Source: a virus (Duplodnaviria > Caudoviricetes). From it: a stretch of DNA of 57,402 nt. Below the pieces are notes generated by a model. The model did not search any database and had not been told where the DNA came from. It worked only from the letters and a program-made list of their open reading frames with translations. This document shows positions 14,498-50,318 of the stretch, piece by piece. The stretch lies in IMG/VR virus record IMGVR_UViG_3300030061_000751, positions 1-57,402 of that record. One strand, 5' to 3'. Made by a program: the position numbers and the translations under genes. How positions within the stretch are numbered: the stretch's first letter is position 1; every line of letters starts with the position of its first letter.

Positions 14498-17400
14498 GTG
14501 GATGTACGCCTGCCAAATGGTCAAATTATCACTAATGTTCCAGATAGCATCACTCAACAGCAACTGGCTCAAATTGCTATAGCGAACAATCTCGCTAGAG
14601 AAGAAGACTTTGCTGGGATTTTTGATGCCCCACAGGCGGCTGAAGAGGACGACACAACCCTTCTCGGCGCAACTGGTGAGTTTTTCAAGGGCATCCCCCG
14701 TGGCGTAGCAAATAGCCTTATATCGACAGGAGAGGGTCTGTTTCAGCTTGCTGACGCCGGTCTAAACCTCGTCGGGCTTGAAGACGCGATAGATCAGGAA
14801 GACGAAGATGTCATCCTTGGTCTAGCCAAACAGGGCAGAGATGCTGTCAACGAGAGCTTTCTGGGTGCAGATGAGGCATATAGAGACTCTTTTGGCGCCA
14901 AGTTTGGCGAAGGTCTTGGCTCATTCCTGACATTCCTCGGCCCCGGCTTCTTGGGCAAAGCGGCTGGTCTTACCGGCAAGGGAATGGCGGCGGCAAGATA
15001 CGGTGGTGCAGGAACGCTCGCTGTGGGTGCCGGTGCAGGAGATCAGTCGCAAAGAATACAGTTTGCCAGAGAGCAAGGCATTGATGTCAGCGGAGATCAA
15101 GAGGACTTGGCGATTGGCCTTGGTGGTGCGATTGGCCTGACAGAGCTTGCGCCTGTTGAAAAGCTGTTGAAGGGTTTGCCAAGGGAACTGCCTGACGGGT
15201 TCAAGGACAAGTCTATCGCTATGCTCAAGAAGGCGCTTGGCACGGGCAGTGTCGAGGCTGTACAAGAGGGCGTGGCAGGAGTCTTACAAGATGCCGTGGC
15301 TCTCGGGGTATACGATCCCAATCAGAAGGTAGGAGAGTCTCTTTGGGATGACCTGACTGTTGGCGGTGCTGTCGGTACAACGGCAGACCTTATCGTCACC
15401 TACGCGGCTGGACGGCGCAAAAGGTCTATTGACCAAAGTCTTCTCGACACAGAAAAAGAGATAAGAGAGCGGCTTGAGGCTGAAGAGCAGAAAAGAAGAG
15501 AGCAGTCCTCTCAGAGAAAGCTAGACCCGCAAGAAGAAGCTGTCACCGCCCCAGTGGATGAAGAGCCGGATGTTATCAACGTCCAGCCAGTTACCGTCCC
15601 ATTTACAACCCCCTCCCAAGCTGGAGAAAGATTCCCCGATAGAAAAAGAGTGCCTGTGGGCACACCCACCCTTGTCGAAGGCGAGAAGTTTGCTGGAGGC
15701 AATCCCTATGCCGCAACTGCAATAGAAATATCCCGCAGGCTTGGCGACTCATTCCCACTAAACGAAACCTTTACTGTCGCGGCAACTGCCACAGGTGCAG
15801 AAGGCCCAGTAAGACAGCGCACCGCTGTGTTTGACAGTCAGGGAAAGCAGTATGGGCCTGAGTATGCAGACCCCAGAGAGGCGATACAGTTAGCTGGCGC
15901 TTTAAACGGGCAGGTTCTTGAGCAAACTCTAGAGCAAAACAATGCCTTGGTGATTGACGAAGCTGGACTTGATCTTGATGAAGATCAGAGACAGACCATG
16001 CTCACTCTGGGCCGCAGGGTGCTTGGAACAGATACAAACAGCTATCACAAGTCAGCCATTGATTATGCCGCAGGAACCACTGCTGAAAACGGCTATGCAG
16101 ACGATCTGACGGCACAGCAGGCCATAGACGAAGGTATTAGGCCCAAGGACATGACCGCATCCCAGCGGATTAATGCCGCTAGGTTGAAAAAGGGTTTGCC
16201 GGAAACAAACAACTTCTCTCTCTCGGAGGCCCGTAAGGCGCTTGGCGACAATGTTGGCAGGCTTGCAGAGTTTGAGTCGGGCGCTTCAGAGGTCGATACG
16301 CTTAGAGCGTTTTCTCAGGATGGCGTACCAGCCGTAAGCGTAGACAGAGATGGCGTTTCTACGGGCGTCATAAAGACTAGACCTACAACAGCCGCAGAGA
16401 AAGAGGCGGCTAGGAGCCAAGGTAAGAGAGCGCCGGGGCGGGTCAAGTTTACGAGCATGAGGGACGCTCAGGAGTATGCTGGTTTTATCAATCAGCGTAA
16501 GGGCGGTGCGTTCGTTAGTAGCGCAGAAATGTTTGGCGAGATGGAGCTTAGTCAGGAGAAGTTCGCTGAACTGCTTGCCGCCAAAAACATTGACATGGAC
16601 TACAACTCGCCAGAGATGCGTAAGCTCGCGCAGATACTGACTGGCAGAAAGCTCAGGCGCGATCAGTCCATCAATGACCTGAAAAACGAAGAGCTACAGT
16701 TTCTCTATCACAAAATGCGAGCTTTTCCTCGCTTCAATAAACCCACCAAACTACCTGTCTTTGAGCTAAAGCCATACTCTCCAGCAGAGCTACAGCTTGC
16801 AGTAGACCATCTCCGCCGACAAGGCACAGATATATCCAGAGCCGCCCTTGAGTATCAGGGCAAGACCATGAAGGCGAGAGCCTACGATCAGGTCATCAAA
16901 AAGGCTAGAGAGGTTGTGAGCCGTGATCAGGCGGCAGTCGAAGAGGCTTCTCAGCCAGAGCAAACCTCTCAGATACTTGCACTGCCGTCACCAGACCAAA
17001 GACGAACAGCAATGTCTGAGGCTATTGCGGCAAGAGTTAAAAAGCTCGGCCTGTCTGATGACTTCATTACTAGGCTGGTGGACAGGGTTAGAACGCCCAA
17101 CAGAGATGCACAGGGCAACATAGATTTTGTTGAGTCAGCCGATCCTCGTCAGGCGGCGGCTCGCGGAGCATTTGATCCGCTACAGAGAGTCCTCCAAGTT
17201 AGCTTTGACAACATACTTGCAGAAGCTGGCCCCAACGCCACAGATGCGGAGCTGTTGGTCAGAATACTAGGGACTTTAAATCACGAAGTCTTACACGCTC
17301 TAAGAGTTCTCGACTTAATTACTGAGCAGGAGATGGCGACCCTTGAAAAAGCGGCTCGCGCCTACGCGCCAGATGGCGCACAGGGATATGAAGCTGGAGA

Positions 17401-32673: not shown

Positions 32674-32944
32674 ATATCCAGCCCTCGTTGTGATCGTTGA
32701 TGTAGCAACCGCCAGTAACGACCAGCCCGTCTCGTAGGATGTCGGCCTCGCCTTCTGACATGACAACGTCAGCGTCAAACCCCAGCTTGTTGGCGGCTCT
32801 CCGCATGGCGCTCTCTGATCTGAGCACAGTGTCGATTGCGTTACCCACCTGCCAGATGGTGAAGGTAGGCTCCGGCATATCATCAGCCTCGGAGCAGTTG
32901 GGGTGGCAGTCGAACCTGCCGCATTCAGTGCATAATCTTTTCAT
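32666..32944 (-). CDS. Hypothetical protein with N-terminal Cys cluster
   Basis: RBS AGGAGG; CTECGRFDCHPNC. Confidence 0.65.
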   Translation of the reverse strand: MKRLCTECGRFDCHPNCSEADDMPEPTFTIWQVGNAIDTVLRSESAMRRAANKLGFDADVVMSEGEADILRDGLVVTGGCYINDHNEGWIYD

Positions 32945-32963
32945 GATCTCCTCCTAAAGAGAT

Positions 32964-33037
32964 TGGAAGGGCGAGCGGGGATCGAACCCGCCTATCTGGA
33001 TTTGCAGTCCAGTGCATAACCACTCTGCCACCGCCCT
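32964..33037 (-). tRNA. tRNA-Cys (GCA)
   Basis: 74-nt cloverleaf: acceptor AGGGCGG/UCGCCCU, anticodon arm CUGGA-CUGCAAA-UCCAG, T arm GCGGG-UUCGAUC-CCCGC, discriminator U, encoded CCA. Confidence 0.95.
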
Positions 33038-33039
33038 GT

Positions 33040-33058
33040 AAAAAGCCGCTCACGCGGC
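33040..33058 (-). terminator. Terminator-like hairpin immediately 5' of the tRNA
   Basis: GCCGC-GUGA-GCGGC-UUUUU; the loop contains the upstream stop codon. Confidence 0.55.
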
Positions 33059-33265
33059 CTGCTCTTCTGCCTTTGTGATCTCGGCTTTCGCTTCCGCAAC
33101 CGTATTGAAGTAACGCCAGCCATTAATCAAGCGAGAATTCACGCCCCACATCTTGCCGAATCGGGGGTGACCTATTCGGCGGATAGTGGCAACTGGGTAG
33201 CCACTATCGTTGCGAGCGGTTGTTGTTCTAAATGGGCCGCCAAGGTAGGTAAATTTGATTGCCAT
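33050..33265 (-). CDS. Hypothetical protein (71 aa)
   Basis: RBS AAGGAG before ATG 33265. Confidence 0.65.
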   Translation of the reverse strand: MAIKFTYLGGPFRTTTARNDSGYPVATIRRIGHPRFGKMWGVNSRLINGWRYFNTVAEAKAEITKAEEQAA

Positions 33266-33309
33266 TCTCTGCTCCTTGAATGGCCCCATGAGGGGCCGGT
33301 TAGTAATTA

Positions 33310-33545
33310 AAAAATGATTGCACATACCCTACTCACAACGATTACCTAGGCTCGTTGTTTTCGCCACCCTCGCCTAGCCTTAGCCTATTTGAATGAGCAT
33401 ATTCGTGGTCTATATCGCACTAAACTCAAACTGTTACAGTCGCAGATGGTGTTAGCCACCTTTGCAACACGGTTACAAGCCATCGCACTACTACTCCTCT
33501 GTACAATCGGTGCGTTCCGCTACAGACAGCAGAAACCTAAAACTG
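33310..33545 (-). ncRNA. Candidate structured non-coding RNA
   Basis: Intergenic gap with several stems whose G-U pairs work only on the - strand, plus two loop pseudoknots (see findings). Confidence 0.55.
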
Positions 33546-33559
33546 TTGAAGTGTTGATG

Positions 33560-33883
33560 TTACCCGCCACAAAAGTCCAGGTCAAATGAGAAGTACGGTT
33601 CTGCAAGACCCCAAGGCCCATTGATGAATCGAACTATTGACCACTCGTATGGGCCTGACTCCCAGCTCACCTTCCAGACGCCGCTGTCCTCCTCACGGAT
33701 AAAGACCTCGTCGCCGGGGTCTAGTTCAAACAGCTCGCAGTCCTTGCAGAGCGCCTTGTAGGCGGCGTGTGCCGCCGCCTTGGGGGTCTTGTACTGGGTG
33801 AAGTCCACCTTGTCCAAGTTGGGCAGGGTGCTCATTGCCTCGTTGTATAAGCTCGCCAGTGCGGCCTCAAAGTCATTGCTCAT
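33560..33883 (-). CDS. Hypothetical protein (107 aa)
   Basis: RBS GGAGG before ATG 33883. Confidence 0.65.
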   Translation of the reverse strand: MSNDFEAALASLYNEAMSTLPNLDKVDFTQYKTPKAAAHAAYKALCKDCELFELDPGDEVFIREEDSGVWKVSWESGPYEWSIVRFINGPWGLAEPYFSFDLDFCGG

Positions 33884-33951
33884 AGCTCTGCCTCCCGTAG
33901 CGGAATGCTTCCGCACCTGTTGCGTAGGCGTCGATGTAGTCCAGAGTTGAA

Positions 33952-34137
33952 TCACTCATGATGCGTCACTCCTTTAAGATTATTTTCGCAGTCTGCTTCG
34001 CTGAAGGAGGCAGTGCCCTCGATGTAGATAAACTCTTCTTCGCCGCGCTCGTTCTTTTCGACACGGTACGCCCTCCAGATGCAAAACTTTTGATCGGCGT
34101 CTAAATTCTCAATTTCGCTCTTAATTTCAATCTTCAC
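33952..34137 (-). CDS. Hypothetical protein
   Basis: RBS GGAGG before GTG 34137. Confidence 0.6.
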   Translation of the reverse strand: MKIEIKSEIENLDADQKFCIWRAYRVEKNERGEEEFIYIEGTASFSEADCENNLKGVTHHE

Positions 34138-34396
34138 GACACCTCCCCTTCTCCTCAAGACGGGTTTGAATTTGGTTGATCAGCTCGGTTCGGGTTCTGC
34201 CCTTGAGGTGTCTCCATCCGGGGGTGCCCTCACACTTCCAGACCTCTCGGCTCCCGTACTGGCCCCAACCGTATCTATCGTGGTAGTGGTAGCGTTCTCT
34301 TACCTTCGTGAGCTGGATGTCCTCACGACCCACTACCGCATACACGGCGTAGGTGCCAGCCTCCCAGTCCTCCGCTTGAATCTTCTTGAGTTTCAT
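34127..34396 (-). CDS. Hypothetical protein
   Basis: Preceded by the GACTGAGGAGTCA SD motif. Confidence 0.7.
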   Translation of the reverse strand: MKLKKIQAEDWEAGTYAVYAVVGREDIQLTKVRERYHYHDRYGWGQYGSREVWKCEGTPGWRHLKGRTRTELINQIQTRLEEKGRCRED

Positions 34397-34431
34397 AATT
34401 GACTCCTCAGTCGTTTAGGTTTCGGCCAGTA

Positions 34432-34581
34432 TCAGGCCTCTTCGATAAAAAGAATGGGTGATGTACCCTGCAAAGTTTCAGTATCGTCAGTCGGCTCAAG
34501 AATCTCCCTGACCTCTTCCTCTGAAGCCGCATGGATATACACATAGCTATGGTTTTCAAACTCAACAAAAAATCTTTTCAT
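34432..34581 (-). CDS. Hypothetical protein (49 aa; not in ORF track)
   Basis: MKRFFVEFENHSYVYIHAASEEEVREILEPTDDTETLQGTSPILFIEEA; RBS GAGGA. Confidence 0.6.
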   Translation of the reverse strand: MKRFFVEFENHSYVYIHAASEEEVREILEPTDDTETLQGTSPILFIEEA

Positions 34582-34635
34582 GATCGAATCCTCAATCGTT
34601 CTGTCAAACCTAGGGGGCGCATGGCCCCCAGTTGA

Positions 34636-34836
34636 TTAACCGCGTTTGGATTTAAAGGGCGTCATATACTTGCGTTCTGACACCTTGACTCGCTTGCGTG
34701 AGCCGTCAGTCCAGCGGATGTGCATCCACTTAGGCCCAACTTTCTCAATACAGGCGACCCGTATCCCTCGATCAGTGTGATACCAAACCGGCTCCCATCC
34801 TCGGTTGAGGGCTTTGCGGTAGGTCAGGCTCTGCAT
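34636..34836 (-). CDS. Hypothetical protein (SH3-like pattern)
   Basis: Packed ORF followed by hairpin GGGGGC-N5-GCCCCC. Confidence 0.6.
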   Translation of the reverse strand: MQSLTYRKALNRGWEPVWYHTDRGIRVACIEKVGPKWMHIRWTDGSRKRVKVSERKYMTPFKSKRG

Positions 34837-35027
34837 ATCGAAACACTCACATAGCGATTCTCTGACCCTTCCTTCTGAATCACATAGTGGATGTGATCAG
34901 TCTCGACATCGCGCATGATTTGATAGATGACATCATCAATATCATCATCAGTCACGGTGTCCTTCAGAGTAACGTGATCGGTGTACTCCTCTGGGTGCTC
35001 TGCGGTGCTATACCAAAGCGTAGTCAT
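34824..35027 (-). CDS. Hypothetical protein (67 aa)
   Basis: ATG 35027 preceded by TGACTAAGGAGTCA. Confidence 0.65.
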   Translation of the reverse strand: MTTLWYSTAEHPEEYTDHVTLKDTVTDDDIDDVIYQIMRDVETDHIHYVIQKEGSENRYVSVSICRA

Positions 35028-35051
35028 GGTTGACTCCTTAGTCATTCGGGC

Positions 35052-35112
35052 GGATTCCCGATAGCCGCCGGAGCGGCTTTCACGCTGTATCCCTCAGCGA
35101 TCATCAGTCGGG
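35052..35112 (-). ncRNA. Type I hammerhead ribozyme (HHR-1) with loop II pseudoknot
   Basis: CCCGA CUGAUGA U CGCUG-AGGGAUA-CAGCG U GAA AGCCGC-UCCG-GCGGCU A^ UCGGG AAUCC; predicted cut between 35062 and 35061. Confidence 0.85.
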
Positions 35113-35475
35113 GCTGTCTGCGCCTCTTATGGGGTGTTTCCAGCCCAAGTGAGGTGAGGGTAAGTCCAAGCAGACATTGAACGTGCTATTGCCGCCGTGG
35201 CGCGGCCCCCAGCTTCTTTTGAGTGCAACGCTTCTCATGTGGAGCGGTTCAAGTTGGTGAAGCCGCTCCTCGAATGAATCCATAAAGGCGTTGTATTTTT
35301 TCCACTCGGCGTCTGTGGTGAAGGCTCGCCCAGTGCGCGAGGTGTCTGCCAGAATGTCTTGTATTTCCTCTCTGGCGCGGAGCACACCCTTGCGCTCATC
35401 GGCGTTGTCACATTTGTGAAGGGCATCCGCGAGGATGCGGCCTAGTGTTGCGGCGTTGGCTTTGCTGATATTCAT
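35104..35475 (-). CDS. Hypothetical protein; stop codon lies in the HHR-1 core
   Basis: SD motif GGCTAAGGAGTCA; ends ...CCC GAC TGA TGA. Confidence 0.65.
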   Translation of the reverse strand: MNISKANAATLGRILADALHKCDNADERKGVLRAREEIQDILADTSRTGRAFTTDAEWKKYNAFMDSFEERLHQLEPLHMRSVALKRSWGPRHGGNSTFNVCLDLPSPHLGWKHPIRGADSPD

Positions 35476-35492
35476 GGCTGACTCCTTAGCCG

Positions 35493-35669
35493 TTAGGCGT
35501 TCTCTACCATGTTTTCTTGAACGGACTTTATTAAAGCCAGTGCGCTCTCTACATGGGCCAGTAGGTGTTGATTGTTGATGTTAATGCTTTGATTCAGCAG
35601 TAATTCATCTACAAAAATCAACAGGTCTGTTCTCGCTTCGTCTAGCTTTGCAACGTGAGCGTTTGTCAT
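35493..35669 (-). CDS. Hypothetical protein (58 aa; not in ORF track)
   Basis: MTNAHVAKLDEARTDLLIFVDELLL...; SD motif TGACTAGGAGTCA. Confidence 0.65.
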   Translation of the reverse strand: MTNAHVAKLDEARTDLLIFVDELLLNQSININNQHLLAHVESALALIKSVQENMVENA

Positions 35670-35700
35670 GATTGACTCCTAGTCAGTGGGTGAAGGCCGC

Positions 35701-36597
35701 TTATGCGGCCTGTTGAAGTTCGACATCATCAGAGAATGAGTCGAGATGCTCGTATGCCGCCTGAGCTAGCTTGGCGGCGCGGTAGATGGCCTTGCTGTCA
35801 TCACGCAGAGCCTGCATCCAGCTCTTGAGGTAGATGGCATGGTCAGGGCGAGGTGTCTGCTCCAGACCGTGAGCCGCGCAGGCGAAGGTTGCAGTGAGTT
35901 CAGCGACCAATTCTTCGAACCCATAGTCGGCACTGCCAAACCTGCCAGATTGGTCACGGTCAAGCTGTGAGGTGTGGCCTGTTGCATGACCAAACTCATG
36001 AAACAGAGTGCCATACGCGGTGCAGGTTGCGGTGGCATCGCCGATGCTGACAAATGAATCGAAATCAGGCATCCCGATGTGGTGCAGGGCGGGGTTGTAG
36101 TAAGCGCCAGACTGCCCGTATTTGACAGCAGGCATCCCCATGCCCACCCGTGCATTCTCAAGCCACTGGTCAATCTCAGCGACACGCTCGACGGGGTTGA
36201 GCACTGGGGTGGCGTCCAGCTCGGGAGCGCCGTCTACCTGCTCGGCATTGAATACCGTGTACACCTTGGCAAACGGTATCTTTTTCTTTGAGCCGTCATC
36301 TTCTTCGATGTCGAGCATCTTAAAGAAGATGATCTTAGTGCCGCTCTCGCCCTTGCGGACCTGAGCATTGAGTGACTTCCACTGCTTGTAGGTAGCCCAG
36401 CGGGTATCGGTAAAGGTGGAGAGCATCATCAGCACGATCTGATTGATGCCCTTGTAGGCGTTGCCGCTGACAATGTTGGTCTGCAAGCCTGCGGAGGTGT
36501 TGGTGAAAAACGGCTTGGTGTAGTCGCTCAGGCTCACCTCTTCGAGCTGTGCCAATACGGTGTTGGTGACTACTTCATACGCTGTTTGCTTTGCCAT
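35701..36597 (-). CDS. ardC: ArdC-family antirestriction protein (ssDNA-binding domain plus zincin metallopeptidase-like domain)
   Basis: Y.GIN, WATYKQW...A.VRKGE.G, YTVFNAEQ, AYY.P..H.I.MP, HEFGHATGH..L.R, Y..EELVAE, HA.YL.SW...L..D. Start moved to ATG 36597. Confidence 0.92.
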   Translation of the reverse strand: MAKQTAYEVVTNTVLAQLEEVSLSDYTKPFFTNTSAGLQTNIVSGNAYKGINQIVLMMLSTFTDTRWATYKQWKSLNAQVRKGESGTKIIFFKMLDIEEDDGSKKKIPFAKVYTVFNAEQVDGAPELDATPVLNPVERVAEIDQWLENARVGMGMPAVKYGQSGAYYNPALHHIGMPDFDSFVSIGDATATCTAYGTLFHEFGHATGHTSQLDRDQSGRFGSADYGFEELVAELTATFACAAHGLEQTPRPDHAIYLKSWMQALRDDSKAIYRAAKLAQAAYEHLDSFSDDVELQQAA

Positions 36598-36623
36598 GAT
36601 CGGTGACTCCTCAGTCATCAGGG

Positions 36624-36686
36624 TGGATTCCCATGACGCCCCGTGGGGCGTTTCGGCCTGTATCCAGCAGGCCATCATCAGATGGG
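36624..36686 (-). ncRNA. Type I hammerhead ribozyme (HHR-2) with loop II pseudoknot
   Basis: CCCAU CUGAUGA U GGCCUG-CUGGAUA-CAGGCC GAA ACGCCC-CACG-GGGCGU C^ AUGGG AAUCCA; predicted cut between 36635 and 36634. Confidence 0.92.
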
Positions 36687-37076
36687 TTAGGCGGCGTCCA
36701 CTTCGACACCTTCATAGGTATCAGCGAACACGGTACGCACAGCGGCCTGCGAGGCTTTAGCCTCAGACCATCTGCGCTTCTTCGCGGCGTGCTTTGGGGT
36801 GCGGGTGCGACTGAACTGCACCGGCTTCAGCGGATCGTCGGTGTAGCTGTCATCATCAACCTTGCCATACAGGCCGCGATGATCAGCAATCCACGCGCCG
36901 TCATACTCGGTGACATCGTAGATTGCAGAGTAGATGTTGACCTCGGACAGATCGTAGTAGGTAGTCCAATCTGTCAAGGCCATGAGCATCTGCTCGACTG
37001 CCTCGCACGGTGTGTCACCGTATCCCCATGAAGAACCGCCGCCGATTGAAACGAAAGAAAGGTATTGCGTTTTCAT
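36687..37076 (-). CDS. Hypothetical protein (first early ORF)
   Basis: SD motif TGACTGAGGAGTCA; its stop abuts HHR-2 stem I. Confidence 0.7.
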   Translation of the reverse strand: MKTQYLSFVSIGGGSSWGYGDTPCEAVEQMLMALTDWTTYYDLSEVNIYSAIYDVTEYDGAWIADHRGLYGKVDDDSYTDDPLKPVQFSRTRTPKHAAKKRRWSEAKASQAAVRTVFADTYEGVEVDAA

Positions 37077-37096
37077 ATTTGACTCCTCAGTCAGTT

Positions 37097-37390
37097 ATGA
37101 GTGGGGTTGAGCGAAAGTGCTCACGCATACCCAACGCGCTCGGCGGTGGGCATGGTGTGAAAACTCTCTGATCAGCCACTCCACCCTACAGCGCAGGTAT
37201 GGGATAGCTGATGCATCAATGCGGGGTCAGTGATGCGCTGACTGTCACCCTGCTGGTAGGCATGAGGTGCCGCTTGCTTGCTCAAGACAGGACGGCTTGA
37301 ATCGCCCCGAAGTTGGCCGTGTGGTTTGTAGGCCCACCCCTGCGGGCGTAAGGTGCCCCGTATCCCCCAACCTCGTTATCAGGTTGGTGT
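37097..37390 (-). ncRNA. Candidate large multi-pseudoknot structured RNA (~290 nt)
   Basis: No ORF in the track; about 12 nested stems and 6 crossing pairings identified by hand (see findings). Confidence 0.75.
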
Positions 37391-37394
37391 GGTA

Positions 37395-37423
37395 ACGCTA
37401 CAGGATGCAAAGTCATAAAACAA
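37395..37423 (-). promoter_or_regulatory. Candidate sigma70 promoter for the early transcript
   Basis: TTGTTT-17 nt-TAGCGT; predicted start falls just before the first hairpin of the RNA. Confidence 0.4.
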
Positions 37424-37498
37424 CACCCTGAGACAAATGATTTTCAGACAAGTCTTATGACTATATATAGCAAATTAAATTGCGAGCAGTGGGGAAAG

Positions 37499-37586
37499 GT
37501 GTTGACACAGTGATGAGAAGTGTGATTGCGATCATGAATCACGTAAGTCATTGATATGTCAGGAATTAAAAAGTGTTGACAAAGTG
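37499..37586. promoter_or_regulatory. Direct repeat GTGTTGACA(C/A)AGTG x2
   Basis: Copies at 37499-37512 and 37573-37586, each containing TTGACA. Confidence 0.55.
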
Positions 37587-37603
37587 TAATTTACCAAAAA
37601 ACA

Positions 37604-37619
37604 CTGTATATACATACAG
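37604..37619. promoter_or_regulatory. LexA (SOS) box, gamma/betaproteobacterial type
   Basis: CTGT-ATATACAT-ACAG, one mismatch from the E. coli consensus CTGTATATATATACAG; lies in the divergent control region. Confidence 0.75.
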
Positions 37620-37819
37620 GTCTCTAAATGGCCCGTGAGCGGCTTTTAAGGGGTTACCCCTTGCGTTGGTATTGGTGACAGCTAATCGCTCCCACAGCGC
37701 TTCCTATGGCCCTTGTCGAGGGTGTGACTGTTTTTGGGTACTTCTTAGCTTTTTGTAGGAAAGTGGTTGATTTCGGGGTCATGGTATGCTGGGGGTATTG
37801 AATCAGTGAGGTGATCATC

Positions 37820-38299
37820 ATGGGTAAGACACGGGACAATTTGACTCCGAAGATGTTGCATTTTTGCCGATGCGTTGCCGCAGGCATGGCGTATGCCGAT
37901 GCGTACAGAGAATCGCACGCCGTTACTGCAACAGGGAAGAGCGCGACACACAGAGAGGCGGCGAGCAGGTTGATGGCGAGGGCTGACATAAGGGCAAGGG
38001 TGGACGCCTTAGTGAAGCAGAGAGAGCGGTCTGTACTAGCCTCTGCCCTTTCAGACAGAGAGAGAGTGCTATCGAAGCTCAGGCACTGGCTTGATCACGC
38101 AGAGAGCGGTGACTCGAACCGCATCAGGAGTGCTGAGTTGCTCGGCAAGTCAGTCGGCCTATTCAAAGATGTGGTGGAGACTACCGACAGCCGGAGCAGT
38201 GAGGAGCTGTTGGCCGAGCTGGACGCAATGCTGGAGCAGACCGAGCCAGACCAGCCGGAAGCCGAGCGGGATCAGCCGGAGTCTGGCCAGCTCCACTGA
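37820..38299 (+). CDS. terS: Terminase small subunit
   Basis: LTPK...F......G....DAYR, ASRL.....I..R, E.VL..L, AELLGK..GLF; RBS GAGGTG before ATG 37820. Confidence 0.8.
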   Translation: MGKTRDNLTPKMLHFCRCVAAGMAYADAYRESHAVTATGKSATHREAASRLMARADIRARVDALVKQRERSVLASALSDRERVLSKLRHWLDHAESGDSNRIRSAELLGKSVGLFKDVVETTDSRSSEELLAELDAMLEQTEPDQPEAERDQPESGQLH

Positions 38300-38622
38300 A
38301 AAAATCTGGGGCAAGGCCGAGCCGTCCATAGTACCACCAGCCGACCCCCACCCCCCCCTGACGCTGACGCCACGTTGCATATGTATATACAGTGATCTGC
38401 TCAAAAAATGAGCTAATTTTGGACTTTGTCTTACTGTCACACTGTCTAATCGGGGGGATTTTGCTCAGAAAACGCCCTAGGAGTCCCACTACCCCCCACT
38501 TTTCTACAAAAATTTGCCCAAAATGCCAAAAATTACCAAAAAAGCGGTAAAAACCACTGTCTAACTGTAGATTTGTGCCTGTCAAGGGGGTATATTCTGT
38601 ACAATCCGAGGGGTATTTCTAC

Positions 38623-38750
38623 CTAGTAATTTTCTAGGTCTAGAAATCTCCTAGAACTAGGACTGTTCTGGCCTAGTAATTACCTAAGTTTGTTTTTTAT
38701 AGGAATGTTCTAGCTAGAACCTTCCTAGACCTAGGATATTACTAGGGGGA
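38623..38750. repeat. Array 2 of CTAG-N7-CTAG boxes (7 units)
   Basis: Units at 38623, 38640, 38657, 38673, 38699, 38714 and 38731. Confidence 0.88.
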
Positions 38751-38783
38751 ACACCCTATTTGCGCCCATAGTGGAGAATTTTT

Positions 38784-40265
38784 ATGCCTGTAGCAGGTGA
38801 AGTGGTCCAGTTAAACCCAGATGGGACGGTGCCGGAGGGGGCGTATTACAATCCTGCGGCTGGCGTAGCAATGGTAATACCCGGCGGCATACTCGATACG
38901 GGTGACAGTCCTTCAACCACGGGTTCGGGTGATGTCTTGGAACTAACGCCTATCGTGGACGCAGAAGGCAATACAGTTTCATCTACAGACTACGACTCTG
39001 GAAACTTTGTAGGTGTCGCCAGTCCCGGCAATCAGGGCAATGTCCCAGTCACAACACTGGAAGCCATGCAGGGGGTGTATGTAGACAAGCTGGGCCGCAC
39101 CGGAACGCCAGAGAACGTGATTAACTGGGTCAATGCCGTTAATGCTGGGCAGATGACCTTTGATGAGGCCGTGGCTGGCATTGCGAACTCAGCAGAGGGG
39201 CAAGCCTACGCCGCAAGTCAGGCCGCTGGTGCAGACGCAAACGCAGACGCAAACGCAGACGCAGACGCTGATACTGGTATGCCGGGTCCGCCAGACGGAG
39301 ACGATGTGCTAGACGCTACAACAAATGGGGCGCCGCCACCCGTCAATACCAACTTCAACCCTCTGATACAGCAGTATTATCAGGAATTGTTCAATCGTCA
39401 GGCGCAACAGCCGGGGCTTGATTACTTCTCAGGCAGACTAGGGTCTGGTGCCCTCACTGAGGAAGGGTTGCGGGATGCCATCATCTCTGGCGCTACAGGA
39501 ACAGATAAGCTTTACTACGATTCTTCTCAGGCGTATGGCCCCGTATTTGACGCAACACAGTCATTGTTTGGCAGACGACCCGCAAGGGGAAGATACAACC
39601 CAGAGACAGGACAGCTTGAGGGCGGATTTGGGCAGTACAGGAGACAGCTTGACGCAGGAGAACTGACGCCCGAACAGCTTAGAGGCAGGCTAGTACAGCT
39701 TGCCTATAATCGTGGCGAAGGTGGAGGGCAAAGCGGAGACTACCAAAACTACCTCAACACGCTAGGCATAGACCGGGCAAACAATCCATTCCTGCAAGAT
39801 GATGGCACTTACGCCAATGTCGCTTATGGCAGTGATCTGAGTCAGTACCAGCCAGACCCCGGAATGCCTGCTCCGCCACCCGGAAGCAATCTACCGCTCC
39901 CCGGAGAAGGAACACCCTTTCCGATGCCCGGCCCCACGCCGCCCAGAATGCCCGGAAAAGGTGGCGGAATGCCCGGAAGAATGCCCGGTCAGTACATTAC
40001 AGGCAACCAGCTTTACTCCGGTATGCCTTATGGCATGAGTCAGCCTATGGGTATGTTCGCGCAACCGATGATATATCAGCCCCCGCAGTTTTCTGAGCAA
40101 TATATGCCTAACCGTGGGTTGATGTCTGGATACTCGACGGGCTTTGGGTCTTACGGCGGCTATCGAAGACCCAGATTTGGTGGCGGTAAAGGCGGCTTGA
40201 GAACCAGACCAATTTACCCGATGGGTGGAGGAAAGGGTGGATTCGGAGGCGGTTTCGGCTACTGA
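38784..40265 (+). CDS. Protein with DUF4214-like repeats and P/G/M-rich tail
   Basis: Y...LGR.......NW........T.......ANS.E and YQELFNR.....GLDYF; ADAN repeat at ~39231-39269. Confidence 0.65.
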   Translation: MPVAGEVVQLNPDGTVPEGAYYNPAAGVAMVIPGGILDTGDSPSTTGSGDVLELTPIVDAEGNTVSSTDYDSGNFVGVASPGNQGNVPVTTLEAMQGVYVDKLGRTGTPENVINWVNAVNAGQMTFDEAVAGIANSAEGQAYAASQAAGADANADANADADADTGMPGPPDGDDVLDATTNGAPPPVNTNFNPLIQQYYQELFNRQAQQPGLDYFSGRLGSGALTEEGLRDAIISGATGTDKLYYDSSQAYGPVFDATQSLFGRRPARGRYNPETGQLEGGFGQYRRQLDAGELTPEQLRGRLVQLAYNRGEGGGQSGDYQNYLNTLGIDRANNPFLQDDGTYANVAYGSDLSQYQPDPGMPAPPPGSNLPLPGEGTPFPMPGPTPPRMPGKGGGMPGRMPGQYITGNQLYSGMPYGMSQPMGMFAQPMIYQPPQFSEQYMPNRGLMSGYSTGFGSYGGYRRPRFGGGKGGLRTRPIYPMGGGKGGFGGGFGY

Positions 40266-40266
40266 G

Positions 40267-40518
40267 ATGCGCCGCAACTACCGCAAGGAATACGACAACT
40301 ACCAAGCCAAGCCCAAACAGCGCCGAAACAATGACAAGCGGAAAGCCGCTAGGCGCTTGATGGAGAAGGAAGGCAGGGTTAAGAAGGGTGACGGCAAAGA
40401 CGTAGCCCACAAGAAACCACTGGCAAAGGGCGGCTCTAATAAGAAGGGCAACTTGAAAGTGGCGAACAGATCAAAGAACAGGTCATTTAAGCGTACTAAA
40501 ACAGCACGGATGGCGTAA
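40267..40518 (+). CDS. Small HNH-like protein adjacent to terL
   Basis: DV.HKKPL.KGGSN...NL.V.....NR. Confidence 0.7.
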   Translation: MRRNYRKEYDNYQAKPKQRRNNDKRKAARRLMEKEGRVKKGDGKDVAHKKPLAKGGSNKKGNLKVANRSKNRSFKRTKTARMA

Positions 40519-42026
40519 TGTCAGACCTAATCACGCCCGAACTAGCTAAGAAGCTAAAGGGCGCATCTCCAGAGATGAGGCTTAGGGCCGCAGAGCTTCT
40601 GGAGAAAGCAAAGCAGGCAGAAGAGATAGAAAAGGCACAGACCTCTTATATGGGGTTTGTGAAGCACATGTGGCCTGCATTTATTGAAGGCAGGCATCAC
40701 AAGATTATGGCAGAGGCGTTTGAGCGCATTGCTAGAGGCGAACTGAAGCGCCTGATCGTGAATATGCCGCCACGCCACACCAAGTCTGAGTTTGCTTCTT
40801 TCTTGCTACCGGCATGGTTCTTGGGCCAGATGCCTGAGAAGAAAATCATTCAGACGGCGCACACCGCTGAATTATCTGTCGGTTTCGGCAGAAAGGTGCG
40901 AAACCTTGTGGATTCGGATGACTTCAAGAAGGTCTTTCCTAGTCTACAACTAAGAGCAGACTCAAAGGCGGCGGGACGCTGGAGCACCAACAAGAATGGC
41001 GAATACTTCGCTATCGGTGTTGGCGGTGCGGTAACAGGTAAAGGTGCCGATCTGTTGATTATTGACGACCCTCACTCAGAGCAGGAGGGCCAGTCAGCAG
41101 ACCCAGCCGTGTTTGACCGGACGTATGACTGGTACACATCTGGGCCTCGACAGCGTCTTCAGCCGGGAGGCGCTATTGTTATTGTAATGACGCGCTGGCA
41201 TATGCGTGATTTGACCGGCAAGATTATTAAGTCTTCTGCTCAACGGGTAGGTTCCGATGAGTGGGAGCTAATAGAGTTTCCAGCCATCATGCCGTCAGGA
41301 AAACCCCTGTGGCCTGAGTTCTGGAGCCAAACGGAGCTTGAGGCTCTGCGGAGCGAACTGCCCTCCCCCAAGTGGAACGCGCAGTACCAGCAAAACCCAA
41401 CCGCCGAAGAAGGCGCACTGATCAAGAGAGAATGGTGGAAAAGGTGGGAGCCTGACTATCCGCCGCAATGTGAGTTCGTGATTCAGTCATGGGACACAGC
41501 TTTCTTGAAAACCCAACGGGCAGACTACTCTGCCTGCACAACGTGGGGCGTGTTTTATCACCCCGACGATGACGGCCTATCACAGCCGAATATCATCCTA
41601 TTGGATGCCTACAAAGAACGTCTGGAGTTTCCTGAGCTAAAGAAAACGGCTTACGAGATGTGGAGTGAGATGCAACCAGACGCATTTATCGTGGAAGGAA
41701 AGGCGGCAGGGATGCCGCTTATTTTTGAACTACGGGCGATGGGGATTCCGGTTTCGGAATACACCCCCTCGCGTGGTAACGACAAGATAGCAAGGGTAAA
41801 CGCTGTTGCTGACTTGTTTGCTTCTGGCAACGTATGGGCGCCAGAGACACGATTCGCTGAAGAAGTCATTGAGGAATTTGCCGCGTTCCCTGCTGGGGAG
41901 CATGACGACCTTGTGGACTCTTCAACGCAAGCACTTCTCCGTTTCAGGCAGGGCGGCTTTGTATCGCTCCACACTGACGAGGAAGATGACTTTGACCCCC
42001 ACGGGAGGGTGGCAAACTATTACTGA
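40518..42026 (+). CDS. terL: Terminase large subunit
   Basis: NMPPRHTKS, LLIIDDP, MTRW, YQQNP, SWDTA and HDDLVD motifs. Confidence 0.95.
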   Translation: MSDLITPELAKKLKGASPEMRLRAAELLEKAKQAEEIEKAQTSYMGFVKHMWPAFIEGRHHKIMAEAFERIARGELKRLIVNMPPRHTKSEFASFLLPAWFLGQMPEKKIIQTAHTAELSVGFGRKVRNLVDSDDFKKVFPSLQLRADSKAAGRWSTNKNGEYFAIGVGGAVTGKGADLLIIDDPHSEQEGQSADPAVFDRTYDWYTSGPRQRLQPGGAIVIVMTRWHMRDLTGKIIKSSAQRVGSDEWELIEFPAIMPSGKPLWPEFWSQTELEALRSELPSPKWNAQYQQNPTAEEGALIKREWWKRWEPDYPPQCEFVIQSWDTAFLKTQRADYSACTTWGVFYHPDDDGLSQPNIILLDAYKERLEFPELKKTAYEMWSEMQPDAFIVEGKAAGMPLIFELRAMGIPVSEYTPSRGNDKIARVNAVADLFASGNVWAPETRFAEEVIEEFAAFPAGEHDDLVDSSTQALLRFRQGGFVSLHTDEEDDFDPHGRVANYY

Positions 42027-49779: not shown

Positions 49780-49835
49780 CCCTGACTAATTGTTCCATGT
49801 GGAACATTAGACACTAGCCACGACAGGAGAATCAC

Positions 49836-50318
49836 ATGGCTAATACTACATTCAGCGGTGCTGTCCGCTCTGAAAATGGTTTTTCAGATATCACCAAAAA
49901 TTCCACTACTGGCTCTATTACCAGCACCATGACGTTATCCACCTACGAGGCGACGATTACCGTGGCTAATGGTGCAACGACAGGTAAGGAAGCCGCTATT
50001 GGCATCCCCTCAAACTTTATCCCTATGGGTGTGTTGGTCGCTGTTACCACAGCTTCTGCTAACTCCGTCAACCTTAACGATATTGGCACCGATGCAGACA
50101 CTGACGGCTTTGTCGATGGTATCTCTGCCGCTGTTAACTCTACGGGCTTCAAAGGGTTTTTCCCCTGCAATGGCGTTCTCGGGATGTCCGGTGGCACAAC
50201 CACTGCGTCTACAGAAACAGCAGACGAAGTAGAGATTGTGCTTTCTGGCGATCCGGGTGGCGACACAGTTGTTGTCCTCAAGTTTTTCGGCATCTCTACC
50301 ACTTCAGACGCATCATAA
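49836..50318 (+). CDS. Virion structural protein
   Basis: MANTTFSG.VRS.NGF start; T/S/G-rich. Confidence 0.65.
   Translation: MANTTFSGAVRSENGFSDITKNSTTGSITSTMTLSTYEATITVANGATTGKEAAIGIPSNFIPMGVLVAVTTASANSVNLNDIGTDADTDGFVDGISAAVNSTGFKGFFPCNGVLGMSGGTTTASTETADEVEIVLSGDPGGDTVVVLKFFGISTTSDAS

Follow-up and report, generated by a model that had tools for sequence, protein, structure and literature searches.

The window, which is the whole stretch of 57,402 nucleotides analysed here, bears the marks of a tailed phage: a large terminase gene (40518-42026, plus strand), a Mu-gpT-DE RNA (49780-49838, plus strand) and one tRNA. The DNA runs that contain its sequence are marine or seawater metagenomes, and no RNA run is listed for it. 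On the minus strand, a leftward operon, of which the gene for a 129-aa protein (orf129) is likely the first, continues with ardC and three further open reading frames, and two hammerhead motifs, referred to as A and B, are set between these genes (Table 1). Hammerhead B lies about 1.5 kb downstream of A on the same strand, so that the pair flanks ardC, the 58-aa ORF and the 123-aa ORF. Some metagenome contigs skip or replace the 58-aa ORF, with joints running from 35486 to 35680/81.

The gene directly behind hammerhead A had been named ardC from the sequence alone, and this placement of the ribozyme in an ardC leader is borne out by Pfam and PHROG comparisons. Its product carries an ArdC N-terminal domain from residue 5 (PF08401, 6.5e-30) and a zincin-like metallopeptidase domain (PF18818, 2.9e-35), and it matches PHROG 7245, annotated as 'anti-restriction protein', at 2.7e-67.

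The closest relative of the locus, L010, comes from a 58-kb viral contig syntenic with the window, in which the segment 37070-46746, containing shared structural genes, aligns at 68-82% identity. A blastn search with 1.6 kb of the locus against GenBank phages returned no match, and a scan of 32800-38800 for sigma-70-like promoters and terminators gave nothing above the shuffle background.

Behind each of the two hammerheads lies a copy of one ribosome-binding module, a small hairpin whose loop contains GAGG or AAGG. This module occurs five times on the operon strand (at 37094, 36618, 35493, 35045 and 34414), with 7 matches in the whole window against 1.29 expected, and its hairpin shows a compensatory change from G-C to C-G in L010. 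Three of the sites have no adjoining ribozyme. The module belongs to the operon and not to the ribozyme.

Table 1. Features of the ardC locus and its two hammerheads (positions in the window; the two strands of a helix are separated by a slash)
Feature	Position	Strand	Remarks
orf129, 129-aa upstream ORF	36687..37076	-	no family match; TAA adjoins stem I of hammerhead A
Hammerhead A, stem I	36686-36682 / 36634-30	-	5 bp
Hammerhead A, core C3-A9	36681-36675	-	CUGAUGA; sequence and descriptor scan
Hammerhead A, extra U	36674	-	between A9 and G10.1
Hammerhead A, stem II	36673-68 / 36660-55	-	6 bp, closed by G10.1-C11.1
Hammerhead A, loop II	36667-61	-	7 nt
Hammerhead A, G12-A13-A14	36654-52	-	GAA
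Hammerhead A, stem III	36651-46 / 36641-36	-	6 bp including A15.1-U16.1 (A 36651, U 36636)
Hammerhead A, loop III	36645-42	-	4 nt
Hammerhead A, cleavage triplet	36637-35	-	GUC; C17 = 36635
Hammerhead A, predicted self-cleavage site	between 36635 and 36634	-	3' of C17, by hammerhead numbering
Hammerhead A, linker A	36629	-	3' of stem I
Hammerhead A, pseudoknot	36666-62 / 36628-24	-	5 bp; loop II UGGAU with tail AUCCA
Ribosome-binding module of ardC	36604..36618	-	small hairpin UGACU / AGUCA, GAGG in loop, 6 nt before ardC ATG
ardC, 298 aa	35701..36597	-	ArdC N-terminal domain and zincin-like metallopeptidase (MPTase-PolyVal)
ORF, 58 aa	35493..35669	-	no family match
ORF, 123 aa	35104..35475	-	no family match; UGA stop 35106-04 = U4-G5-A6 of hammerhead B core
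Hammerhead B, paralogue of A	35050..35112	-	R1 match, sequence, MFE fold
Hammerhead B, stem I	35112-08 / 35061-57	-	5 bp
Hammerhead B, core	35107-01	-
Hammerhead B, U/U at base of stem II	35100 and 35082	-
Hammerhead B, stem III	35078-73 / 35068-63	-	6 bp; A17 = 35062
Hammerhead B, pseudoknot	35092-89 / 35055-52	-	4 bp; loop II with tail; tail AAUCC
ORF after hammerhead B, about 67 aa	34824..35027	-	from ATG 35027; same ribosome-binding module before it (35045-32)

Anatomy of hammerhead A

Hammerhead A is an element of 63 nt (36686-36624, minus strand) in which sequence reading and a descriptor scan find all parts of a type I hammerhead, together with a pseudoknot and one additional U behind A9. 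The earlier, sequence-only reading had described a complete core, a GUC triplet and stems of 5, 6 and 6 bp, and all of these were recovered both by direct reading of the minus strand and by our own scan. The extra U (36674) and the complementarity between the loop II sequence UGGAU and the AUCCA lying 3' of stem I, over 5 bp, were found as that reading had them, and the cut that it predicted between 36635 and 36634 agrees with the hammerhead numbering.

The topology is that of type I, with stem I open and with loops on stems II and III. N17 is C and not G, and the GUC triplet follows the NUH rule. The strict spacing from A9 to G10.1 is not kept, the extra U being inserted there. A hammerhead pseudoknot is understood here, after Perreault et al. 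(2011), as at least 4 bp between the loop of stem I or II and the tail beyond the other, and that of hammerhead A has 5 bp.

The claim that the ribozyme starts directly after the stop codon upstream also stands, since the TAA of orf129 occupies 36689-87 and hammerhead A begins at the next base. Its 3' end is located 27 nt before the ardC start.

In folding calculations, the minimum free energy (MFE) structure of the isolated 63 nt is the hammerhead secondary structure (-26.3 kcal/mol). When a context of 101 nt is folded, the nested MFE structure keeps stems II and III and loses stem I, with a z-score of -1.36. For a stem of 5 bp relying on a pseudoknot this outcome is not surprising, yet it offers no support either.

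A covarying family of phage relatives

Relatives of hammerhead A were collected with a pattern comprising the core with the extra U, GAAAC and GUC, which is found in at least 118 loci on viral contigs. Among the matches listed, hammerheads with all stems of at least 4 bp are present in 65 of 118 viral loci, amounting to 79 sites. The same pattern applied to contigs of bacterial genomes yields such ribozymes in only 10 of 120 loci (Clostridia, cyanobacteria, Cohnella and others) and, because of this low yield, the pattern alone cannot be what creates the stems.

An alignment of 69 non-redundant sequences (A2) was assembled from this family. Proposed pairs are formed in 92.1% of their cells in A2; shuffles reach 65.0%, and controls in which the partners are slid reach 30-42%. 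As the three nested helices had been selected as paired, only their diversity and the pseudoknot constitute independent evidence. Double-sided changes occur in 20 of 22 pairs: 15 of the 17 nested pairs show them, the other two never varying, as do all five pairs of the pseudoknot. The core is invariant except at N7, and A15.1-U16.1 is A-U in 69/69 sequences.

The pseudoknot was not a selection criterion for A2. The best helix between loop II and the tail averages 4.01 bp, against 2.79 +/- 0.09 bp when the tails are permuted among sequences, and none of 2000 permutations reaches the observed average. At least 4 bp can be formed in 68% of the sequences, against 18% in the permutations, and the paired sequences are very diverse. 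These permutation figures are inflated by the presence of related sequences and are not to be taken as probabilities.

The extra U is present in 65 of the 69 sequences of A2 by construction of the search. A view less dependent on the pattern is given by 18 ribozymes that fall outside it and reside in the same loci: nine carry the extra U, five lack it, three have a bulged A after G10.1 and one is a core variant with U followed by G. The extra U after A9 is thus a state commonly found in a large subclass of phage hammerheads and not an accident of hammerhead A.

A covariance model (R1) built from A2 detects 90 sites at E<=1e-3 in 127 viral loci. In the window, R1 finds hammerhead B (35112-35045; 42.6 bits, E 2.7e-11), which is absent from the seed, and the MFE structure of B is again the hammerhead fold (-24.2 kcal/mol). 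The U/U opposition at the base of its stem II corresponds to a U10.1-U11.1 variant of the hammerhead that is active (PMC3088659). One further R1 match, at 17050-17126 (12.1 bits, E 0.14), was rejected as it has no GAAA core.

Placement at gene junctions and mosaic breaks

The comparison with L010 separates the ribozyme from its neighbours. An 84-nt block (36606-36689), which comprises the stop codon, the ribozyme, the tail and the ribosome-binding site, is 94% identical in L010, above any gene that the two contigs share, and the ribozymes themselves differ in two loop III bases only. The genes on both sides are unrelated: the upstream ORF has 88 aa in L010 and 129 aa in the window, with no BLASTP alignment between them, and the place of ArdC is taken downstream by an ORF of 47 aa.

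The tie of the hammerhead to ardC is not conserved. No hammerhead was found in nine viral loci encoding relatives of ArdC (at most 42% identity), where R1 has no site either, and scans of our own design for types I, II and III over the ardC of the window and these loci gave only loose chance matches with 3/4/3-bp stems, in ardC and in two of the loci (L006 and L007). ArdC occurs once among 60 genes downstream of family members, in the window itself. No enrichment of anti-defence genes downstream of the ribozymes was detected either, the 60 ORFs comprising this one ArdC and one weak match to S-AdoMet lyase, with the rest diverse or of no assigned function. Moreover, one short metagenome contig carries a joint from 36600 to 37096 (side 30, weak) that places ardC directly behind the operon leader, without orf129 and hammerhead A. 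Hammerhead A is therefore not obligatory for ardC, as this joint appears to omit it.

What recurs across the family is the position with respect to reading frames, judged from rough automatic ORF calls in which the upstream ORF is the nearest one of at least 40 aa on the same strand. In 23/69 cases its end coincides with the first base of stem I, and in 40/69 it lies between -1 and +2 nt from stem I. In six cases the ORF ends at -9, where the UGA of the core doubles as its stop codon, an arrangement also seen in hammerhead B. When only the 66 cases with an upstream ORF are considered, 50 end between -11 and +3 nt from stem I. The distance from the cut to the next start codon has a median of 33 nt (interquartile range 26-54, n=62). 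Because of these distances to the ORF end on one side and to the start codon on the other, the ribozyme can be described as packed, with no room left over, between a stop codon and the ribosome-binding site that follows.

Similar ribozymes are also found between dissimilar genes. In 35 pairs of ribozymes at least 88% identical and drawn from different viral loci, which form about seven clusters and are not independent, the similarity of the flanks is broken at the ribozyme in 23. Across the 400-nt flanks, both sides are common to the two loci in 12 pairs, only the upstream side in 5, only the downstream side in 10 and neither in 8; one pair with identical ribozymes has neither flank in common.

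Metagenome contigs covering 34900-37300, which are short and weak, diverge from the window at the ribozyme edges. Around hammerhead B, a loose end and a joint fall at 35113 and loose ends at 35042 and 35047. Around hammerhead A, a joint from 36621 to 36689 skips or replaces exactly the ribozyme, and one loose end shows hammerhead A with a different stem II. At a loose end that adjoins the 123-aa ORF on its upstream side, the 3' half of another hammerhead-like sequence is present. The packing against stop codons and the near-identical ribozymes between unrelated genes come from a biased sample with crude ORF calls, and they are leads, not results.

These leads suggest that the ribozymes may mark insulating or exchange junctions of gene cassettes. 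It can tentatively be proposed, with the odds rather against it, that the hammerhead and its tail, set between a stop codon and a ribosome-binding hairpin, form a portable junction of this kind for accessory genes, coupled to the termination of translation. If so, a cut made without host RNases would give any downstream gene the same leader in any genome or host, and the same 60-90 nt recurring between unrelated genes would serve as points of cassette exchange. With the stop codon next to the ribozyme or inside its core, a ribosome terminating there would sit on stem I and the core, so that folding might be delayed or the release of the 3' product driven. Such an element would be the natural counterpart of the synthetic RiboJ insulator.

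Probable processing of the operon RNA, its alternatives and known systems

Hammerhead A is most probably a genuine self-cleaving ribozyme that acts in the intercistronic processing of mRNA. The basis is its anatomy, the covariation of the family, a conservation above that of its flanks and its position at a gene junction; from these we infer its transcription, its cleavage and the fate of the mRNA. In this marine tailed phage, hammerhead A would be transcribed along with the accessory ('early') genes of the leftward operon. As soon as the RNA extended past stem I and included the tail, loop II would pair with the tail, aligning stems I and II, and the RNA would cut itself 3' of C17 (36635).

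The upstream product would be an orf129 mRNA that keeps its stop codon and carries the folded ribozyme at its 3' end, closed by a 2',3'-cyclic phosphate; in the type I topology, the entire ribozyme stays on this product. The downstream product would be an ardC mRNA with a 5'-OH at 36634 and a fixed leader of 37 nt containing the ribosome-binding hairpin. Acting together, hammerheads A and B would release a tricistronic ardC-orf58-orf123 RNA. In bacteria, a 5'-OH and a structured 3' end slow the decay of RNA. The processing would be independent of host RNases and give the gene blocks defined ends, and it is proposed that the stability and translation efficiency of each block would therefore be independent of its neighbours.

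The best-surviving alternative, though an unlikely one, is that the fold is real and conserved while the extra-U form cleaves poorly or not at all, the element serving as a structure, for instance as a stabiliser of the 3' end of the upstream mRNA or as a linker for recombination. The breaks of flank similarity at near-identical ribozymes (23/35 pairs) and the divergence of metagenome contigs at the ribozyme edges (35113; 36621/36689) fit a linker, and a literature search yielded no cleavage assay of an extra-U phage member. A linker role and cleavage are, however, mutually compatible, and an invariant catalytic core among freely varying stems in 69 sequences is what selection for catalysis leaves behind, as opposed to selection for a plain hairpin or for homologous sequence. 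In a viroid ribozyme, U as the extra base here is reported to have raised the activity (PMC3705267).

It is less probable still that the 1.57-kb RNA between the two cuts (36634-35062) is circularised, by the reverse reaction or by an RtcB-type ligase, into a stable circular ardC mRNA, or that this interval is spliced out. The predicted ends, a 5'-OH and a 2',3'-cyclic phosphate, would suit such a ligation, and hammerheads A and B have in common the tail motif AAUCC and a similar loop II and stem I, so that the excised 5' end could dock into B. The idea was raised in PMC3088659, but the search of Perreault et al. for circular or spliced RNAs was negative ('data not shown'). Circularisation would need ribozymes of the same locus to be more alike in stem I and the pseudoknot than in stems II and III, and a comparison of such ribozymes gave no specific signal of this, the mean identity being 0.83 in stem I, 0.82 in the pseudoknot, 0.85 in stem II and 0.66 in stem III. 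As co-resident ribozymes are alike in all regions, the stem I and tail common to A and B are explained by paralogy alone.

A chance resemblance, or a decayed relic devoid of function, is a very improbable explanation of hammerhead A. The descriptor used in the window scan, which requires the core, three stems and an N17 other than G and allows an optional extra base, returns hammerhead A as the single strong site. Sites with all stems of at least 5 bp appear in 3 of 2000 dinucleotide-preserving shuffles of the window, and those with at least 17 bp in total in 1 of 2000. Stems of at least 4 bp, on the other hand, turn up in 10 of 200 shuffles (5%); the pseudoknot was left out of both tests. Judged by shuffles, the motif alone is suggestive, not decisive. 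Against chance stand the 5/6/6-bp stems together with the pseudoknot, the 94% conservation in L010 between unrelated flanks, the membership in a covarying family and the second hammerhead close by.

The silence of Rfam could also be taken in favour of chance. A cmscan with hammerhead models, which the sequence-only reading had put forward as a check, does not recognise hammerhead A, nor its obvious relatives. Rfam 15 reports no hammerhead in the whole window, either at the gathering score or at E<=10, and the sole match of a permissive local scan is a weak one to Hammerhead_II (20.6 bits, with the cut-off at 37; E 0.066) in a different register. The models compared were RF00163, RF00008, RF02276, RF02275 and RF02277 (clan CL00010); these families belong to the same ribozyme class as hammerhead A, on which none reaches the gathering score. 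At that score, Rfam also has 0 matches in 12 relative loci that hold about 30 evident hammerheads, some of them without the extra U. Since the models miss all 12 relative loci tested, their silence on the window is uninformative, and the phage subclass of hammerhead A is effectively unrepresented in them.

Scarcely credible are the two readings in which the active form is a type II hammerhead using a second CUGAUGA (36621-36615), the register of the weak Rfam match, or in which the stretch is coding and lengthens ArdC at its N terminus, starting at the in-frame ATG 36678 (ORF 35701-36678 is open): the stem II of the former is unpaired and its stem I has 3 bp, and in L010 a 2-nt gap and a substitution remove the second CUGAUGA, for which lack of conservation the register was rejected, and break the frame as well. 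Likewise, the ATG at 36678, inside the ribozyme, is not the ardC start, because the ArdcN domain begins at residue 5 of the protein started at 36597, GGAG lies 6-9 nt before the ATG at 36597 and the protein started there matches PHROG 7245.

Cleavage with mRNA processing, the preferred reading, has close precedents. Perreault et al. (2011, PMC3088659) described tandem prophage hammerheads around ardA whose cleavage was observed both in vitro and in E. coli. The cases include Agrobacterium tumefaciens, where ardA is flanked by three ribozymes, and Legionella, where a hammerhead lies upstream of this gene. Mutation and rescue showed that fast cleavage at 0.5 mM Mg2+ requires pseudoknots of this kind (PMC3088659). 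Like hammerhead A, these ribozymes combine the catalytic core with a pseudoknot in place of a loop-loop contact and are located in intergenic phage DNA, where several copies flank single genes or short blocks of varying identity, with an anti-restriction gene directly downstream. They differ in that the gene there is ardA and here ardC, and in the extra U, on which the portion of the text available is silent, although its alignment may hold such variants.

The locus is a clean two-ribozyme operon around an anti-restriction gene and recalls the cases published in 2011, with ardC in the place of ardA. The earlier statement that pseudoknotted hammerheads are known near phage genes while their role there is largely unresolved matches PMC3088659 and the accessible part of a 2019 review (PMC6765202), which calls the role of bacterial and phage hammerheads largely elusive.

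The position of the extra base is known from viroids. The CChMVd(+) hammerhead has an extra A10 between A9 and G10.1, and its change to U raised trans-cleavage 3-4 fold, as work by De la Pena & Flores (2001) is reported in the available parts of PMC3705267 and PMC1636495. An extra base is thus tolerated there. This ribozyme resembles those of the phages in having one extra nucleotide at the same core position, and differs as a type III viroid ribozyme with loop-loop contacts, which retains the additional A because of a function in viroid folding that is not catalytic. In the phage subclass, in contrast, U is the natural base and is common. A literature search for an extra base after A9 in phage hammerheads returned viroid papers only; the feature may nonetheless have been published, as the 2011 alignment may contain it. 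The ribozyme class, its pseudoknot, the occurrence in prophages, the flanking of gene blocks and the anti-restriction link are already covered by PMC3088659, and the extra-base position has been described for viroids.

Two further systems invite comparison. RiboJ, a synthetic insulator made of the sTRSV hammerhead and a 23-nt hairpin before the ribosome-binding site (PMC6206723), shares with the locus a hammerhead that removes, or here would remove, upstream RNA, a constant short leader and a small hairpin by the ribosome-binding site. It is nonetheless an engineered element placed after promoters and based on a type III satellite ribozyme, whereas the hairpin here is a general module of the operon; the resemblance would be functional only. 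The crystal structure of a pseudoknotted hammerhead (PDB 8YDC), with an extended-hammerhead mechanism (Zhan et al. 2024, PMC11300833), likewise uses the pseudoknot as tertiary stabilisation. In the portion available of that paper, the pseudoknot replaces helix II and an extra stem-loop on helix I gives a pistol-like arrangement, whereas hammerhead A has a normal 6-bp helix II, the loop of which would pair with the 3' tail.

The definition of a hammerhead is left unchanged by these findings. Relatives occur in isolated phages with GenBank records: in Faecalibacterium phage FP_Brigit, an extra-U ribozyme begins at the base behind an annotated stop codon, Flavonifractor phage Castelnaud likewise carries the extra-U form, and the extra U is missing from the two ribozymes of Salisaeta icosahedral phage 1. 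The hammerheads are unannotated in all three records, and those of the extra-U subclass are being missed in phage annotation.

Ribosome-Binding Module and Probable Leader of the Leftward Operon

A ribosome-binding module, consisting of a hairpin of 4–5 bp with GAGG or AAGG in its loop, is repeated along the leftward (minus-strand) accessory operon, where it heads five genes at a distance of 6–7 nt from the start codon. Two of these five copies sit 3´ of hammerheads. Across the window, seven matches to the module were observed vs. 1.29 expected, and a compensatory change from G–C to C–G is found in its hairpin in L010, a syntenic viral contig.

The stretch 37077–37319, 5´ of the 129-aa ORF, is non-coding and shares 77% identity with L010 over 273 nt, while the ORFs downstream of it are not alike in the two sequences. 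It is here that the leftward operon probably has its promoter/operator and leader; a search of the stretch for a sigma-70-like site found none.

In ribozyme B, the hammerhead paralogous to that preceding ardC, U4-G5-A6 of the core is the UGA stop codon of the preceding ORF (35104–35106, minus strand), the upstream coding sequence thus crossing stem I and ending in the catalytic core. The core UGA likewise serves as the stop of the upstream ORF in 6 of the 69 family members (e.g., in the viral loci L012, L014, L051, L073, L084 and L121).

Operon Divergence, Variability and Other RNAs

The 111-aa ORF at 37654–37989 (minus strand) is overlapped by a 162-aa ORF at 37811–38299 (plus strand). Because the latter is kept in L010, at approximately 74% at the protein level (tblastx), the 111-aa ORF is unlikely to be a gene. 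The region from about 37320 to about 37810 separates the two divergent operons.

The accessory operon varies within the population. The 58-aa ORF is skipped or replaced in metagenome contigs of other samples (window 35486–35681); in one of these, the site is occupied instead by another hammerhead-like sequence, of which the 3´ half is present. One short contig appears to lack ribozyme A, the hammerhead ahead of ardC, together with the 129-aa ORF (window 36600–37096). Two further RNAs, Mu-gpT-DE and a tRNA, are listed in the table.

Coordinates of RNA features in the window and in isolated phages
Feature	Position	Strand	Remark
Ribosome-binding module	37081–37094	−	
Ribosome-binding module	36605–36618	−	
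Ribosome-binding module	35480–35493	−	
Ribosome-binding module	35032–35045	−	
Ribosome-binding module	34401–34414	−	
Mu-gpT-DE RNA	49780–49838	+	51.8 bits vs. gathering score 49; 5´ of head genes
tRNA-Cys (GCA)	32964–33037	−	Far end of leftward operon
Hammerhead, Faecalibacterium phage FP_Brigit	L248 1504–1570		Model R1
Hammerhead, Flavonifractor phage Castelnaud	L250 1201–1271		Model R1
Hammerheads (two), Salisaeta icosahedral phage 1	L249 1073–1144 and 1496–1565		Model R1

Hammerheads in Isolated Phages and Core Variants

Model R1, the covariance model built from the 69-sequence alignment, scored clear hammerheads at 43–77 bits in three isolated phages, all of them without annotation in the GenBank records. 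The Castelnaud ribozyme is antisense to a ‘hypothetical protein’ called by phanotate, a possible over-call.

Among the viral relatives, a bulged A 3´ of G10.1 replaces the extra U 5´ of G10.1 in L073 (1891–1962 and 2316–2385) and L119 (3156–3228), and core U4 is changed to C in the hammerheads at L073 2316 and L016 3561. Four ribozymes are packed into 1.7 kb of L073 and five into 2.8 kb of L114.
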